IMG/VR virus record: IMGVR_UViG_3300022602_000072
Source: an uncultured virus (IMG/VR IMGVR_UViG_3300022602_000072)
Taxonomy: Duplodnaviria > Heunggongvirae > Uroviricota > Caudoviricetes
Strand: one strand, 5' to 3'
DNA: 64,000 nucleotides
The position numbers were made by a program, and so were the translations under genes. Below the pieces are notes generated by a model, which was given only the letters and a program-made list of their open reading frames with translations, made no database searches and was not told where the DNA came from. The first letter of the stretch is position 1, and every line of letters starts with the position of its first letter. Shown in pieces: positions 4,719-15,958 of this stretch.

Positions 4719-4906
4719 GCAAGGGCGGCTAACGTAACGTTATTGTCTTGAGCCCACTCTTGTGCTGGAGTAATAGATTCGATGGTCAGGTTTGCACCAC
4801 CATCCGCTAGTTCTTCTGAGATATGAAGCAGGAACATCTGAGCTGATTCATAGTCATTGAACACTTCTATCAGTGTTTCAGTTAGGCTGTCATAGATTGT
4901 ATACAT
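4715..4906 (-). CDS. Hypothetical protein
   Basis: ORF translationally coupled to the vWA gene. Confidence 0.6.
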   Translation of the reverse strand: MYTIYDSLTETLIEVFNDYESAQMFLLHISEELADGGANLTIESITPAQEWAQDNNVTLAALA

Positions 4907-6732
4907 TATCGTCCTCGCTTTCTGATGGCACCCGTAACCACGGCTTTGGCAAACGGGAGTAAGTCGGCACCACTATTTACACGGGCATAGACCTCAGCAC
5001 CGTGGCGGAACGTGGCGTCTGTATAGTTGTAGCGTTCCTCATACCACTCTCTGTCTTTTTCTTCCATGATGAGAGTCATTGCTGTAAGCACGCCACGCTT
5101 GGCAATGCGAGCAATAATCTCATCGTTTGGGTTCTCATTGAAGACACCGTCAGTAATGATGAACAACATCTTGTTCTTCTTACGGGACGACATGAGTAGT
5201 TGTTCAGCCGCTAGTAGCGAGCTCTGTGGATTGGTACCACCGCTACCGTAGATGAACTTGTATTGCGTACGGTCAGCCGCTTGATTACGACGATAGGCTA
5301 CTTCAGTCTGGTCGTCGAATGCATAGACTGTAACGAGGCCATTGATTTGCTCAATACCACGCTTGATAGTCCAGCAGGCTATAGATGCTTGTAGGTCATT
5401 GCCACCATGCATTGAACCTGAACGGTCAACCAAGATGACGGCCTCGATATCTGCACCGTCTGTGCCCTCATCCCAACGGTCAAAGGCTTGGTCAATCTCA
5501 CAGCCTCTGATTGCTCGTTGGACATTGAGCTTACCGCTTGCTTCCTCCTTGTGCCATGCTGGCTCGCACTCGTCACGCAAGCGTTCTAGCTCACGTGCGA
5601 ACCTACGATAGGTAGCCATGCTGTCAGCCGGTACAGTTGTAAGGTCGAATCGACCAGCTTTGACGGAGTCATTGTGCTTACCGTCACCGCCGATGATTAC
5701 CTTTTGCTTTGTCTTGATATCGGATTGAACATCCTTACGAGACATGACTTCGTTGATAGTGTCTTGCAGTATTGCTTGAACACTATCTGGTATGCCACCA
5801 AGACTCTCGTGATGACCTGTTCCGGCTATTGGGTCACCGGGTACATAGTCTTTGCTTGTCTTGTCTGGCGCTGAGTTAGCGGCATCAAGAGCTTCTTGGA
5901 TTGTCTTGGGTGCAGATGGTGCTGGTTTGTTTGTGTTGGTTGATTCGGCTTTACCGACTCCACCACCACGCTTTGCGTCTTTCTCCTGTGCTTTGCCAGG
6001 TTCGGGACGACCTTTGGCTACAGGGTCACGACCCGTACAGCCATTCATACCCTTAGGCGGTTGAAAGCCTAGAGGCGCCAGCACTTCATCATTCCAGCGC
6101 TTGATTAGTTCTTGTGCCTTGGCATAGTCACGTGGGAATGCCAAGAGACGATACTCATCTACGATTTCGGCAATGACAGGGATAAGCTCGGGCTTTGCGA
6201 ACATATCTCTGAATGCCTCACGTACATCTAGTGGTAGATACCTACGACCACGCACCAGCATGTAGTTACCTACAGCATCGCTTGGTGTGCGGGCTAGCCA
6301 TCTAGCCACTGTTGCAGTTAGGAATGGTGCAATTGATGGATAACGACCCACGAGCAGAGTCTCGATACGCTGGTCCTCCAGCATATTGGCAGACTCCATG
6401 TAGCCATTCTCTACAACCCACTTCATGAACGTAGTGCCACGACGTGGAGTATAGAGATGATGAGCTAGCTCATGGAAGTTGAGGCCATTGACTTGCGCCA
6501 AAGCCTCAAGGTCGAAGTTATCAATCTCTTGCGAGTTGATATAGATAGCGGCACCGTCAGACCATGCAGGTGCTGGGCCATCATCCATCACGTGAACCAG
6601 AACTGGGTCACCAGTGATTACTCTGTCAGTCTGTTCATAGACACGACAGAGGGAGTTAAGCTGAACGGTACGTTCCTGTTCCTCTTCGGAACGAGATTGG
6701 TAATACCGTTCATCTAGGTTATCGTCATACAC
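4906..6732 (-). CDS. vWA-domain protein with N-terminal HExxH metallopeptidase-like domain (CobT-like MoxR partner)
   Basis: HELAH...LEDQRIE; MIDAS motif DRSGSM, GGT, ITDG. Confidence 0.85.
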   Translation of the reverse strand: MYDDNLDERYYQSRSEEEQERTVQLNSLCRVYEQTDRVITGDPVLVHVMDDGPAPAWSDGAAIYINSQEIDNFDLEALAQVNGLNFHELAHHLYTPRRGTTFMKWVVENGYMESANMLEDQRIETLLVGRYPSIAPFLTATVARWLARTPSDAVGNYMLVRGRRYLPLDVREAFRDMFAKPELIPVIAEIVDEYRLLAFPRDYAKAQELIKRWNDEVLAPLGFQPPKGMNGCTGRDPVAKGRPEPGKAQEKDAKRGGGVGKAESTNTNKPAPSAPKTIQEALDAANSAPDKTSKDYVPGDPIAGTGHHESLGGIPDSVQAILQDTINEVMSRKDVQSDIKTKQKVIIGGDGKHNDSVKAGRFDLTTVPADSMATYRRFARELERLRDECEPAWHKEEASGKLNVQRAIRGCEIDQAFDRWDEGTDGADIEAVILVDRSGSMHGGNDLQASIACWTIKRGIEQINGLVTVYAFDDQTEVAYRRNQAADRTQYKFIYGSGGTNPQSSLLAAEQLLMSSRKKNKMLFIITDGVFNENPNDEIIARIAKRGVLTAMTLIMEEKDREWYEERYNYTDATFRHGAEVYARVNSGADLLPFAKAVVTGAIRKRGR

Positions 6733-6743
6733 TAACTACCTCC

Positions 6744-8141
6744 TTAGACGTTGGCTTTGGCTTGTGATACCCACGCTGTTAGTTCCTCAGCGAGAGTTAG
6801 TTCAGTCTCTGCGGTATCGTTGTTGATTTCTGGTGCGATACCGAAGTCTTCCCTGATGTTGTACTCGTGTGTCTGGAAGACCAAGCGAACTGATGCTTGC
6901 TCCTCAGCACCGAAGTGAGCGATGAAGTTCTCAACCGCAAACTCATAGCCAAGCTTGTTGACGAAGTCAACGAACTCGATAAGCATATTGGTAGAGATAG
7001 GTGTGTCGTATTGACCCTTAGCGGCTTCGGTACGAAGTTGCTTAACGAGTGTACGAAGAGACTTGCTGTCAACCAGCTTCTCCTCAACCGAGTCATCGTA
7101 ATCCCACGCCAACTGAATGTCGAAGCGGTTACGCATAGCGAAGTTGAGAGGCGTGGTGCCTACATAGTCTGGGTTCATAGTCGCAAAGACTGTGACGTCG
7201 GGATGAGCTTCGATAGTCTCACCCATGTGGTCAAGCAACGTGATGGTACGACGACCATCAGTTAAGGGATACAGAGTCGTATAAATCTTGGGGCTGATGA
7301 AGTTCATCTCATCCAAGAGTAGTACGCCACCGTTACGCACAACGTCAGTTACTGGACCATCAATCCAGCCATAACCTCCGTTGCCGTCTGGGATAAAGCC
7401 ACCGAACAACTGTCGGGACTCCATCGATGCATTACCTGATACTGTAGCCATACGCAAGCCACGTGAGGCGGCCCACGCTTCTACAGCGGTTGTCTTACCA
7501 GGACCGGTAGGGCCATAGATAAGAACGTTGATATGGTCAGCACGAGCACGGTCAAAGATATCGAAGTCCTCGACACCATAGACCTTGCGATGGATATATC
7601 GCTCAGCTAAGCGCATAGGTGGCACTGTAGCTAGTGAGACATTGAACGCAGGCGCACTAGCTTTTGTTGATTGCTGTGGCATGTCGTCCAGTGTTTGTGT
7701 TGGAACGGGAACAACTAGCGGGCTAGTTGTTGCTCGGTTATCTATCACGTATTCCTCCAGTTGGTCATCTCCCATCTCGACTTGAGAATAGAAGTTTGTT
7801 ACGATGCCTATCACATCAGCGTTAGCCTCAGCAATAGACTTGTTGTGTGCACTAACTGCTTTGGTAGTCAGGACTGGAGAATAGCCCTTACTATCAATTG
7901 CCCTCATATCAGCGGCAGTAACATACACACCAACAGGCTTGCGAGTTGTGTTCTCGCTGTCTTTAATCTCACCCGATAGTGTGTCTAGGTTTGTTGGCTC
8001 CCACTTATTGTGAGTGCCCTTAGTCCCATCAGTCACACGTGAGTAGAGATTGACACCACCCTTGTATGGAACTACCAATACCTGACGGCGATGGTTTCCC
8101 ATACTAGGCTCGTATGATTCAATGAACATTGAGATGTCCAT
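6744..8141 (-). CDS. MoxR/CobS/CbbQ-type AAA+ ATPase
   Basis: Walker A GPTGPGKT, WIDGP, Walker B LLLDE, ATMNP sensor, NRF arginine finger. Confidence 0.9.
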   Translation of the reverse strand: MDISMFIESYEPSMGNHRRQVLVVPYKGGVNLYSRVTDGTKGTHNKWEPTNLDTLSGEIKDSENTTRKPVGVYVTAADMRAIDSKGYSPVLTTKAVSAHNKSIAEANADVIGIVTNFYSQVEMGDDQLEEYVIDNRATTSPLVVPVPTQTLDDMPQQSTKASAPAFNVSLATVPPMRLAERYIHRKVYGVEDFDIFDRARADHINVLIYGPTGPGKTTAVEAWAASRGLRMATVSGNASMESRQLFGGFIPDGNGGYGWIDGPVTDVVRNGGVLLLDEMNFISPKIYTTLYPLTDGRRTITLLDHMGETIEAHPDVTVFATMNPDYVGTTPLNFAMRNRFDIQLAWDYDDSVEEKLVDSKSLRTLVKQLRTEAAKGQYDTPISTNMLIEFVDFVNKLGYEFAVENFIAHFGAEEQASVRLVFQTHEYNIREDFGIAPEINNDTAETELTLAEELTAWVSQAKANV

Positions 8142-11006: not shown

Positions 11007-11257
11007 TATTTATGCCAATCTACTCGATAGGTTGTTCCCCATCTGCGATAGGGTGCATCTATGATGCGATATAACTTCCACCACCTATAACATGCTTTAG
11101 ATATAGGTAGGCTATGCTGGTCAGCAAAGTCTTCGTGCTCTATTGCTTTGTGCAATGGGTATGAGGACATATGATTGCAAGCATTAGCAAACCAACGTAA
11201 GGGGAGAATGTTGGTCTTGTGTTCCGGTATGCCCGGAAACAGTTCAAAGAAACTCAC
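11006..11257 (-). CDS. Hypothetical protein
   Basis: GTG start with GAAAGGAG RBS; the longer track start overlaps structured non-coding sequence. Confidence 0.6.
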   Translation of the reverse strand: MSFFELFPGIPEHKTNILPLRWFANACNHMSSYPLHKAIEHEDFADQHSLPISKACYRWWKLYRIIDAPYRRWGTTYRVDWHK

Positions 11258-11288: not shown

Positions 11289-11318
11289 TGGGCAGTTTTA
11301 ATAGACATGCCCAGGTCT
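11289..11318 (-). ncRNA. Pseudoknot motif copy D
   Basis: AGAC-CUGGGCAU-GUCU-AU-UAAAAC-UGCCCA; compensatory changes in both stems relative to other copies. Confidence 0.7.
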
Positions 11319-11390
11319 TCTAGTGTTGAGGGGAAAAGGGGGAATTTCGTGCCTCGGCACTCCCATACACCCACAGGTACCTCACTAGCG

Positions 11391-11463
11391 TGCCCTCGGC
11401 TGGAATTGAACCAGCAACACCCACCTTAGGACGATGGTGTTCTATCCATTGAACTACGAGGGC
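11391..11463 (-). tRNA. tRNA-Arg (CCU)
   Basis: Cloverleaf: GCCCTCG/CGAGGGC acceptor, GTTC/GAAC D-stem, anticodon loop GTCCTAA, T-loop TTCAATT; no encoded CCA. Confidence 0.88.
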
Positions 11464-11466
11464 AAG

Positions 11467-11500
11467 TGAGCAGTTTTACCTCAGGTCATACTCAGGACCA
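11467..11500 (-). ncRNA. Pseudoknot motif copy C
   Basis: UGGUC-CUGAGUAU-GACC-UGAGG-UAAAAC-UGCUCA, ending 3 nt before the tRNA-Arg 5' end. Confidence 0.7.
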
Positions 11501-11507
11501 AATCTAT

Positions 11508-11795
11508 CTATGACAATAGACCGTGCAGTTCTTCTGAAGAAAGGATGCGGTCAGTTGGTTGAGGCCAATTAACCCAGCCCTCTGGCTGTTCCTGTCCTTC
11601 TTCAAGCCATGGGGAAATACGAACTGCGTAAGGAACCTCCATTAGTCCTACTTCTGGATTTCCTGTGCCATTTTTGAATGCTTCTAGCGTAGCCTTGTAG
11701 ATATCGTCTACATTATTGGCCGCTTCTACATCCATAATGACTTGTGTAGCAACCATCATGGACACACGATGTGTGTATGTCGTTTGCTTAGTCAT
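11508..11795 (-). CDS. Hypothetical protein
   Basis: ORF with AAAGGGA RBS. Confidence 0.7.
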   Translation of the reverse strand: MTKQTTYTHRVSMMVATQVIMDVEAANNVDDIYKATLEAFKNGTGNPEVGLMEVPYAVRISPWLEEGQEQPEGWVNWPQPTDRILSSEELHGLLS

Positions 11796-11836
11796 TTGTA
11801 TCCCTTTCTGTATGTTTTGCGGATTGTTTGTGGTAA

Positions 11837-11864
11837 TGAGCAGTTTATTGTCATACTCAGGACA
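11837..11864 (-). ncRNA. Pseudoknot motif copy B
   Basis: UGUC-CUGAGUAU-GACA-A-UAAAC-UGCUCA. Confidence 0.7.
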
Positions 11865-11868
11865 CGGA

Positions 11869-12096
11869 TTAACCTCTAGCTAAAAGAACCTCAACATCAG
11901 TACCGATAGAGGCAAAGTATGCCAATGAGGGTACGTTGTGCTCTCCGGATATAGGTGCTAGTACTAGCCCATTACACGCTAGAGTCTCAAGCAGTTCACT
12001 GACACCCAAATCAAACCCATTTGATTCTAGGTCATCTATAATTGTGGATGCCATTTCTTGTTGTGCTTTGATACTTGCCTTTAGTTCATCTGTCAT
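11869..12096 (-). CDS. Hypothetical protein
   Basis: ORF with AAGGAG RBS. Confidence 0.7.
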   Translation of the reverse strand: MTDELKASIKAQQEMASTIIDDLESNGFDLGVSELLETLACNGLVLAPISGEHNVPSLAYFASIGTDVEVLLARG

Positions 12097-12121
12097 GGTT
12101 TCTCCTTTTTCGTTGCATGGA

Positions 12122-12155
12122 TGAGCAGTTTTACCTCAGGTCATGCTCAGGACCA
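12122..12155 (-). ncRNA. Pseudoknot motif copy A
   Basis: UGGUC-CUGAGCAU-GACC-UGAGG-UAAAAC-UGCUCA. Confidence 0.7.
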
Positions 12156-12209: not shown

Positions 12210-12644
12210 TTAGCGGATGAACAATGCCCATTGAGTTGATGTATTAATCTTGAACTCAACATCAGTTGAGCCCTCAATTAATGCAATAGCGTTTTGGACT
12301 TGTTCGTAGTCGCTGATTTCTCCACAACCTGCATCTTTATGTTCAGGTTTGCGACTATAACTAGGACGCTCACCTAAGGTCTCAGAAGCTAACTTTATGT
12401 CAAAGCTATACGATAAATCAAAACGGTTGTTATAAACTCCTACATCCGTTTCGTATGCTTTAGCCACATTCTTCTTAGCCCATGCGATTGCCTTTTTATC
12501 CCAAGCATCTTGACGCCTATCAACAGTCGCATAGTTCTTTTCCCATTCGACTATCTCATCGTCCATACGCTTGAGAGTTGCCTGCAACTTTTTGAGCAAG
12601 TCTTTCTTAGCCCAAGTGGTTGCTATGACTTTGGTATTAGCCAT
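12210..12644 (-). CDS. Hypothetical protein
   Basis: Start re-assigned to MANTKV with AAGGAGG RBS. Confidence 0.7.
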   Translation of the reverse strand: MANTKVIATTWAKKDLLKKLQATLKRMDDEIVEWEKNYATVDRRQDAWDKKAIAWAKKNVAKAYETDVGVYNNRFDLSYSFDIKLASETLGERPSYSRKPEHKDAGCGEISDYEQVQNAIALIEGSTDVEFKINTSTQWALFIR

Positions 12645-15546: not shown

Positions 15547-15693
15547 TTATCCTTTCTTCCATAGTTTTGGACTCCAGATGAAGGACTCACAACGAGGGCA
15601 ATATGGTGTGTCCTCATTGCCATCCTTCAGGTAAGCATCCAACCGCTTGTTGAGACACACCTTGTGGTGTTTCTTCTCCTTACGAATGCTCAT
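15547..15693 (-). CDS. Hypothetical 48-aa protein (MSIRKEKK...CPRC...)
   Basis: Complete frame left of the N gap, GAAAGGAG RBS; its 5' part is duplicated right of the gap. Confidence 0.55.
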   Translation of the reverse strand: MSIRKEKKHHKVCLNKRLDAYLKDGNEDTPYCPRCESFIWSPKLWKKG

Positions 15694-15958
15694 AGCCTCT
15701 CCTTTCTAAGAGGGCGAAAAATCGGCGGGGANNNNNNNNNNNNNNNNNNNNNNNNNNNNNNNNNNNNNNNNNNNNNNNNNNNNNNNNNNNNNNNNNNNNN
15801 NNNNNNNNNNNNNNNNNNNNNNNNNNNNNNNGGTGTGTCCTCATTGCCATCCTTCAGGTAAGCATCCAACCGCTTGTTGAGACACACCTTGTGGTGTTTC
15901 TTCTCCTTACGAATGCTCATAGCCTCTCCTTTCTAAGAGGGCGAAAAATCGGCGGGGA
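15605..15958. other. Scaffold gap (100 N, 15732-15831) flanked by an exact 127-bp duplication
   Basis: 15605-15731 is identical to 15832-15958. Confidence 0.9.

Follow-up and report, generated by a model that had tools for sequence, protein, structure and literature searches.

The 64,000-nucleotide (nt) stretch of DNA analysed here, which we refer to as the window, comes from an uncultured tailed phage (IMG/VR record IMGVR_UViG_3300022602_000072) with terminase, portal, capsid and sheath genes, and it is represented in 24 lake-water RNA runs; a WhiB gene points to a host that is probably actinobacterial. On the minus strand, four compact hairpin-type (H-type) RNA pseudoknots, referred to below as knots or copies A–D, lie at gene junctions around a transfer RNA (tRNA) gene. 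Each has two stems (S1 and S2, with 3' strands denoted S1' and S2') and three loops (L1–L3), and the order on this strand is ORF144, A, ORF75, B, ORF95, C, tRNA-Arg(CCT), D and ORF83, where the open reading frames (ORFs) are named by their length in amino acids (aa):

12644-12210, minus strand: ORF144, 144 aa, the first gene of the block, with homologues in related phages
12154-12122, minus strand: copy A, 4-base-pair (bp) S1 GGUC/GACC (12154-12151 / 12142-12139), S2 UGAGCA/UGCUCA (12149-12144 / 12127-12122), L1 C, L2 U, 11-nt L3 with an AAAC end
12096-11869, minus strand: ORF75, 75 aa, between copies A and B
11864-11837, minus strand: copy B, S1 UGUC/GACA, one U.G pair in S2, 6-nt L3
11795-11508, minus strand: ORF95, 95 aa, between copies B and C, 100% identical in the relative L589
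11499-11467, minus strand: copy C, the same as copy A except for one U.G pair in S2
11463-11390, minus strand: tRNA-Arg(CCT), a lone tRNA within a protein-coding operon, with copies C and D on either side
11318-11289, minus strand: copy D, S1 AGAC/GUCU, S2 UGGGCA/UGCCCA, 8-nt L3
11257-11006, minus strand: ORF83, 83 aa, after copy D, with a GTG start behind a Shine-Dalgarno-like run

These are the positions at which an earlier reading made from the letters of the window (the sequence-only reading) had placed the pseudoknots, one in each of four successive junctions, and only a small correction was needed, as the U at 12155 is unpaired and S1 of copy A is 4 bp long. Copy A lies 55 nt past the stop of ORF144 and 25 nt ahead of the ATG at 12096, copy B 4 nt past the stop of ORF75 and 41 nt ahead of the ATG at 11795, copy C 8 nt past the stop of ORF95 and, as had also been claimed, 3 nt ahead of tRNA-Arg, and copy D 71 nt past the tRNA 3' end and 31 nt ahead of the GTG at 11257. 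ORF144, ORF75 and ORF95 have no family at threshold in PHROGs, NCBIfam or Pfam. A descriptor of the knot family matched both strands of the window four times, at copies A–D and nowhere else, compared with a single match in total on 60 second-order Markov copies of the window, and exact matches to the loop word were confined to the same four copies. A generic H-type descriptor that leaves out the family sequence features found dozens of chance matches in the window, so the case for the knots is made by the repeated core and by covariation in homologues rather than by the fold itself. Nested folding programs gave no significant z-scores here, although such programs cannot represent a pseudoknot.

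The family consensus (~28 nt) consists of an S1 of 3–5 bp, a C, a 6-bp S2, one base, S1', a linker NnAAAC and S2', in which S1 is closed by C-G or G-C, the 5' strand of S2 ends in A, the L2 base is U, C or A, L3 has 1–8 free bases followed by AAAC, and S2' starts with U and is followed by ~6–8 G-poor bases. Among 279 copies, S1 is 3–5 bp long in 261 and is closed by C-G in 248 and by G-C in 31, and the combined length of S1' and L3 is 9–16 nt, with the length of L3 varying freely by insertion at its 5' end. The junction formed by the L1 C, an A-U pair, the unpaired L2 base and the AAAC linker is near-invariant; AAAC was dominant in a relaxed scan (it otherwise formed part of the family queries), and where left free, U follows AAAC in 101 of 119 rows and the loop A is present in 105. 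No conservation was found beyond S2. Copy B represents the commonest, 28-nt form of the family, and its 28-mer has an exact match in cyanophage S-H35.

Both stems covary in homologues, as the sequence-only reading had supposed from the four copies, and each was tested while absent from the query. With S1 left out, 94% of its positions were paired with compensatory changes at all four pairs (150 rows, being 149 of 166 distinct fixed-length matches plus copy B), and with S2 and the loop left out, 83% were paired with compensatory changes at all six pairs (all 119 distinct matches, chance matches included), five or six of which were formed in 91 rows. The S2 covariation score was 0.340 compared to 0.155 +/- 0.010 in shuffles, and none of 500 shuffles reached the S1 or S2 score. 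It should be noted that such scores can be inflated by relatedness, but slid controls dropped to 20–50% paired and the sequences came from unrelated contexts. A covariance model built from an alignment with S1 fixed, was weak, recovering copies A, B and C at E ~0.6, missing copy D and finding no further copy. The argument for RNA made from the U.G wobble in the window holds more widely, as the S2 cells of the 119 homologues, picked without regard to S2, include 85 G.U or U.G combinations compared to 23 A.C or C.A, and it is therefore the transcribed strand that folds. On comparative grounds the family is established as a two-stemmed RNA pseudoknot of the transcribed strand, located outside coding sequence, and S2 as aligned is a helix that forms by Watson-Crick pairs alone.

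The knot is not confined to the window phage and belongs to a very widespread family, for which all counts given here are lower bounds. Two loop-and-tail patterns identified at least 126 and at least 122 stretches in viral contigs and at least 118 in genome contigs, and another family pattern at least 125 stretches in metagenomes. Among the 250 distinct viral matches listed, 242 have an S1 of at least three pairs although S1 was outside the query, and both stems are present in 66 of the 118 genome matches listed, from many phyla (the other 52 were left uncounted, 50 without a 3-bp S1 and two with an S2 mismatch). Cultured carriers include cyanophages S-H35 and S-EIVl, Lactobacillus phage phig1e, a microvirus, and Staphylococcus, Vibrio, Paracoccus, Corynebacterium and Arthrobacter phages, with the enterobacterial Chaseviridae carrying a copy with a G.A mismatch in S1. 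At least one copy was found in 16 of 20 relatives of the window phage, with compensatory changes in both stems. Overall, the family has hundreds of members among bacterial genomes and the phages of a wide range of hosts.

Despite being very common, this 28-nt element is absent from the catalogues we searched. No family in Rfam 15 covers a free-standing knot at the gathering threshold, in agreement with the earlier view that it could not be assigned to a named family, and only neighbouring tRNAs, hammerheads and DUF2800 RNAs and three transfer-messenger RNAs (tmRNAs) scored. No description of the family was found in the literature, though the supplement of the 224-motif paper (PMC5737381) and the model and alignment files of PMC10690425 may contain one; the available text of the latter gives 10,006 viral candidate RNAs, with some motifs upstream of GP20 scaffold genes. 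Ten model phages (LUZ7, PAK_P3, phiKZ, 14-1, LUZ24, Syn9, T4, T5, SPO1 and YuA) gave chance-level matches and no copy, and because none of them carries a knot, their published transcript maps could not be used for it.

Placement was assessed using 476 dereplicated copies. An ORF stop ends 5–6 nt before S1 in 139 of these, 4–11 nt before it in 257 and 0–3 nt before it in ten, and the 5–6 nt peak was replicated in an independent metagenome set (34/110); this is the distance at which a helix would first meet a ribosome with the stop codon in its A site. The remaining 219 copies, including A and D, have no ORF stop 4–11 nt upstream. None of 253 viral copies lies inside a long ORF, and 181 of 211 lie between two genes of their own strand with just one between two genes of the opposite strand. 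Shine-Dalgarno-like words occur within 80 nt downstream of 149 of 370 copies compared with 84 on the control strand, and the tie to a downstream ribosome-binding site is real but loose. The 40 nt downstream of the knot fold more weakly (mean -4.2) than the flanks (-5.0 to -6.2), and G makes up less than 10% of the ~6 nt directly after it.

The association with tRNAs is directional. A tRNA starts within 30 nt downstream of 23 of the 476 copies and ends within 30 nt upstream of two (p 2e-5), the knots standing 1–13 nt ahead of the tRNA 5' ends, and within 200 nt the numbers are 27 after and 11 before the knot. All five relatives which have this tRNA-Arg carry one copy 1–3 nt before it and another 46–71 nt after it, similar sandwiches surround lone tRNAs in two other lineages (L224 and L183), and in Arthrobacter phage Molivia the order of stop, knot and tRNA repeats the layout of copy C. 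Two copies lie directly 5' of hammerhead cores and no copy lies directly 3' of one. A knot is also found ahead of the scaffold and major capsid genes of phig1e and phiJB.

We also note several features found beside individual knots. Contig L435 has four copies in 6 kb, two of them directly 5' of hammerhead cores, and in L413, L474 and L059 the DUF2800 RNA (Rfam) begins within a few bases of the knot 3' end. Relatives L576-L594 keep a second element, GUUGGU..CCUGAGGUAAAA, directly 5' of the knot (L579 4290-4331; window 12158-12129), and in copies A and C this word seems to have been fused to the knot as its L3. Anaerobe genomes from several phyla have an unannotated gene for a ~20–30 aa peptide with the pattern PRxAHCxxGC that ends in a knot, with S1 always beginning 6–7 nt past the final Cys/His codon (24 loci, the gene being found ~70 nt upstream of the knot in L410, L411, L419, L421, L438, L448, L451, L454, L457, L459, L463, L465, L466, L472 and others); two of the peptides were tested and have no Pfam or NCBIfam family. 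In about two dozen such bacterial peptide genes the knot reaches back into the final codons, and some copies end short stand-alone peptide genes with a convergent gene next.

The RNA data consist of assembled contigs, which cannot show ends, strand or level, and carry-over of DNA into the RNA libraries is not excluded. Contigs from four runs cross copies A, B and D unbroken. Contigs stop before copy C at 11523/11524 in three runs and at 11508 in one, and in run X6 the next contig ends at 11521 with no overlap; we rejected the stop near 11523 as a transcript end, as it fits strain polymorphism at a third codon position. Three runs have no cover over the tRNA, which is not evidence either way.

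The closest likeness is to the exoribonuclease-resistant RNAs (xrRNAs) of plant viruses and other eukaryotic RNA viruses known as coremin (xrRNA-C, with a Watson-Crick form, xrRNA-WCC), with which the family shares a first stem of 3–4 bp with a preferred C-G closing pair (the commonest S1 is identical), a pyrimidine at L1, a junction A-U pair followed by one unpaired base, an essential AAAC-U spacer with insertions at the 5' end only, and intergenic and tandem occurrence. The commonest form of the knot matches coremin positions 1–5 and 9–19. The available texts report that the coremin spacer, which is essential for stalling the exoribonuclease Xrn1, accepts inserted bases at its 5' end and nowhere else (PMC6546385, PMC10520033), and that A16-A20 are essential and the fourth pair dispensable (PMC6546385); the knot family varies at the same spacer and pair positions that coremin tolerates. 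In contrast, the family has an 8-nt loop with a full 6-bp S2 where coremin has 2–3 bp or non-canonical pairs, its second loop base is U rather than G, and its last loop base is A, C or U rather than A, G or U, so that the coremin loop consensus YG(N)nAD (4–8 nt) failed (second base U in 94 of 119 and G in seven; last base C in 17). It also lacks the obligatory second hairpin after the spacer, the downstream sequence being weakly folded and G-poor, though a tRNA or ribozyme could stand in for this hairpin in a minority of copies and the longer S2 might replace it. Finally, the family occurs in DNA phages and bacteria and is tied to an upstream stop codon, and no mention of phage or bacterial carriers was found in the available text of PMC10520033 and PMC6546385. 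As read from its sequence the family is coremin-like but, given the loop consensus and the second hairpin, not a member of coremin.

Other small pseudoknots are similar in part. Pseudoknot 1 (pk1) of three tmRNAs (L406 2997-3024, L487 and L504) has the same S2 and AAAC linker as the knot, but tmRNA pk1 (RF00023) has a 9-nt loop and is part of tmRNA whereas the knot is free-standing in messenger RNA (mRNA); no tmRNA was found in the window. The T2/T4 gene 32 operator pseudoknot, the role of which is cited in the available text of PMC10690425, is a further compact H-type knot, but T4 has no copy of the family. Luteoviral frameshift knots of the beet western yellows virus (BWYV) type share the compact H-type fold, 1-nt L1, bulged L2 and A-rich L3 (PMC10321173, available text) and the 5–6 nt spacing from the A-site codon, but our family lies outside coding sequence with no slippery site, no open readthrough frame and no tie to a single gene. 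Ordinary frameshift pseudoknots of this size, BWYV included, are reported there not to stall Xrn1, the BWYV type failing even when given a second hairpin (PMC10321173), and nuclease resistance of the knot family is therefore not to be assumed. H-type pseudoknots with 8–15 coaxial pairs impede RNase E scanning in Escherichia coli in a graded manner according to the available text of PMC9943677, and the ~10 coaxial pairs of the knot fall inside this protective range; the obstacles used were engineered reporters or ligand-dependent, and a natural constitutive phage family is not described in that text.

As the most likely reading, we propose that the knot folds by itself and acts at gene junctions as a passive barrier that protects mRNA from decay in both directions, placed just outside the terminating ribosome, and in our judgement there is about as much to be said for this reading as against it. 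The ~10 stacked pairs would be locked by the C in the S2 major groove and by linker adenines in the S1 minor groove, by analogy with luteoviral pseudoknots and coremin, and from the fold and placement described above we infer that nucleases may be blocked in either direction. Where RNase P, a hammerhead, an endonuclease or Rho makes a new 3' end just downstream of the knot, 3'-5' exonucleases would be stopped just past the stop codon and the upstream gene left intact (copy C and probably copy B). Where a cut falls upstream, the knot would slow RNase J or RNase E scanning and the downstream gene would be spared, as might be the case for copy D, probably copy A, and the scaffold-capsid genes of Firmicute phages. 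Copies C and D would then guard the two mRNA ends made by excising tRNA-Arg. The minimum of ~5 nt from the stop could be explained if a knot in the mRNA entry channel would hinder the ribosome before termination, with genome compaction pushing the knot up to this limit.

The earlier suggestion that the repeats are a processing or stability element is backed as far as sequence can take it, but a more specific version, in which they block 5'-3' degradation by RNase J, survives only in part. It has in its favour the likeness to coremin and the position of copy D, which in the reverse of the commoner layout follows the tRNA and precedes a gene, as the phig1e and phiJB knots precede scaffold and capsid genes. 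Against it, the family is tied more tightly to the upstream than to the downstream gene, and copies occur in Vibrio and enterobacterial phages, whose hosts we take to lack RNase J. Furthermore, when a knot precedes a tRNA or a hammerhead core, cutting puts it at the 3' end of the upstream fragment; this speaks for 3' protection, and a block that faces 5' alone does not explain it.

A number of points weigh against the two-way barrier. The RNA data showed no transcript ends, coremin needs the second hairpin that the knot family lacks, and an 11-bp pseudoknot is a modest obstacle to RNase E (PMC9943677, available text). The literature searched gave no paper on such a knot stopping polynucleotide phosphorylase (PNPase) or RNase II, a step which we infer. 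The peptide genes are awkward in two respects: the knot reaches into their final codons, contrary to a rule of ribosome clearance, and in some of them a normal terminator comes next, which by itself would be enough to protect the 3' end. Placement between convergent and divergent genes is about equal (15 vs 14 of 211, with noisy ORF calls), and a protein ligand would account just as well for the strong conservation of the sequence.

The ribosome itself might be the target, with a knot at the mRNA entry channel aiding termination or blocking post-termination scanning and so uncoupling translation of the next gene (or keeping ribosomes off the tRNA), with the G-poor tail then open to new ribosomes as a loading site. 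The 5–6 nt peak with its hard lower edge equals the spacer length of frameshift signals and fits the position of the ribosomal helicase, all 24 peptide-gene loci have S1 starting 6–7 nt past the second Cys/His codon, and the three tmRNAs use a near-identical core as pk1, beside the resume codon. Coremin is also reported to stall scanning ribosomes and to promote frameshifting in vitro (PMC10321173, PMC10520033, available texts). We nevertheless consider a ribosome-facing role unlikely, as the 219 copies without a suitably placed stop, A and D included, fall outside it, copies before hammerheads and non-coding RNAs have no downstream ribosome to insulate, and there is no readthrough or frameshift signature. 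A readthrough or frameshift signal as such was tried and rejected: the stops are UAA in 79 of 124 cases, the frame is closed inside the motif in 60 of 124, and slippery heptamers were found in 5 of 300.

Near-invariant bases within a helix, and a placement 1–13 nt ahead of tRNA 5' ends and 0 nt ahead of the DUF2800 RNA at three loci, would also suit a site at which a conserved host or phage protein docks, or one that guides an endonuclease to cut next to it, so that the knot marks where polycistronic RNA is processed. With hosts in many phyla, and even a microvirus among the carriers, such a partner would need to be present almost everywhere, coremin requires the same invariant bases for its own folding, and the RNA contigs are unbroken across copies A, B and D (weak evidence), which leaves this explanation improbable in our view. 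We would give no better a chance to a transcription signal acting after the ribosome leaves at the stop, whether an RNA polymerase pause, a non-canonical terminator or an antiterminator. The position right after stops would be appropriate, and sigma-70-like promoters lie within 39 nt downstream of 10 of 370 copies with no start site within 19 nt upstream; however, at least six U in the 8 nt just downstream were found in only 45 of 370 copies, no terminator-like site was found at copies A–D, copies sit within operons before capsid genes and tRNAs, and the contigs through A, B and D again argue weakly against it.

A minimal self-cleaving ribozyme, one of the options raised by the sequence-only reading, would be intergenic, multicopy and beside tRNAs and known ribozymes, as phage ribozymes are, but we regard it as very unlikely. 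No Rfam ribozyme matched, a coremin-like fold accounts for every conserved base, near-identical cores occur inside intact tmRNAs and over the last codons of peptide genes, and contigs are unbroken over A, B and D (again weak, as partial cleavage is possible). Theta (minimal hepatitis delta virus (HDV)-like) ribozymes are small pseudoknotted RNAs beside phage tRNAs, but they follow the tRNA and form a double pseudoknot, starting at the tRNA 3' end, whereas our single H-type knots come before tRNAs in 23 and after them in two of the 476 copies. The other option, a ligand-sensing aptamer of the preQ1-I type, is barely credible. The preQ1-I RNA has a similar size and A-rich L3, and the knot is strongly conserved, but no Rfam riboswitch matched copy B even at E 10 (66-nt stretch), S2 forms with Watson-Crick pairs alone, the Shine-Dalgarno sequence lies outside the fold at variable distance with no terminator after it, and the downstream neighbours are unrelated (capsid scaffold, ATPase, tRNAs and hypothetical genes), with no queuosine-related gene among the annotated records and the 19 bacterial loci looked at. 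A DNA site with inverted repeats that only resemble stems (an operator, part of a promoter or a recombination site) might explain the word in copies A and C that relatives have within a separate upstream element, but it has next to no probability, being largely refuted by the strand-specific wobble (85 to 23) and contradicted by the orientation of the viral copies with both flanking genes, a spacing set by the stop codon and the free length of L3.

The gene block carrying copies A–D is headed by two further structured elements:

12718-12688, minus strand: a fifth H-type pseudoknot of a different type, S1 ACUC/GAGU, 5-nt L1, S2 GCAUGG/CCAUGC, L2 G, L3 AUAAA
~12985-12770, minus strand: a conserved, structured non-coding RNA of ~220 nt, behind a terminator-like hairpin

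The fifth pseudoknot, missed earlier, lies ~43 nt before the ATG at 12644, and in 13 of 20 related loci its topology is kept while both stems show compensatory changes; its descriptor has no other match in the window and its exact core occurs in only four IMG/VR contigs. The ~220-nt RNA shows compensatory changes at eight of 38 predicted pairs (six sequences) and belongs to no Rfam family. Elsewhere, an oriented A/C-rich word, CCAACACAAAC, has seven occurrences in the leftward block, all on its sense strand (window 13817, 12682, 10273, 8971, 7703, 5939 and 3079, minus strand), and one on the other strand at 1728. At 4906-8141 (minus strand), an AAA ATPase gene (PHROG 249, CobS-like) lies beside a 608-aa gene, which resembles what we take to be the vWA partner of a CobS-like ATPase. 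Two near-identical short ORFs at ~15547-15920 stand either side of a 100-N run, which is probably a scaffold join that duplicates sequence.

We advance more tentatively, and think it rather doubtful as a whole, the broader proposal that the knot is what prokaryotes have in place of the coremin xrRNA: a protein-free 28-nt two-way insulator used across phages of many phyla and on some bacterial chromosomes, which would let operon genes decay independently, with its position set by the footprint of the terminating ribosome, and which would be paired around excised tRNAs. If true, bacteria would have no smaller natural barrier to nucleases, and one fold would link the xrRNAs of eukaryotic viruses, tmRNA pk1 and phage gene control. 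Being short, present in cultured phages of harmless hosts such as those of Molivia and phig1e, and accompanied by natural compensatory variants, the knot lends itself to inexpensive study. The full Watson-Crick S2 may also make the knot a tractable model for the coremin fold, for which the available text of the papers cited gives no solved structure, and a possible minimal stabiliser for synthetic RNA. Unequal protein levels in long operons and the excision of tRNAs without loss of the neighbouring genes have so far been explained mostly by promoters and terminator hairpins, and a common 28-nt element of this kind would add a post-transcriptional layer to phage gene control.

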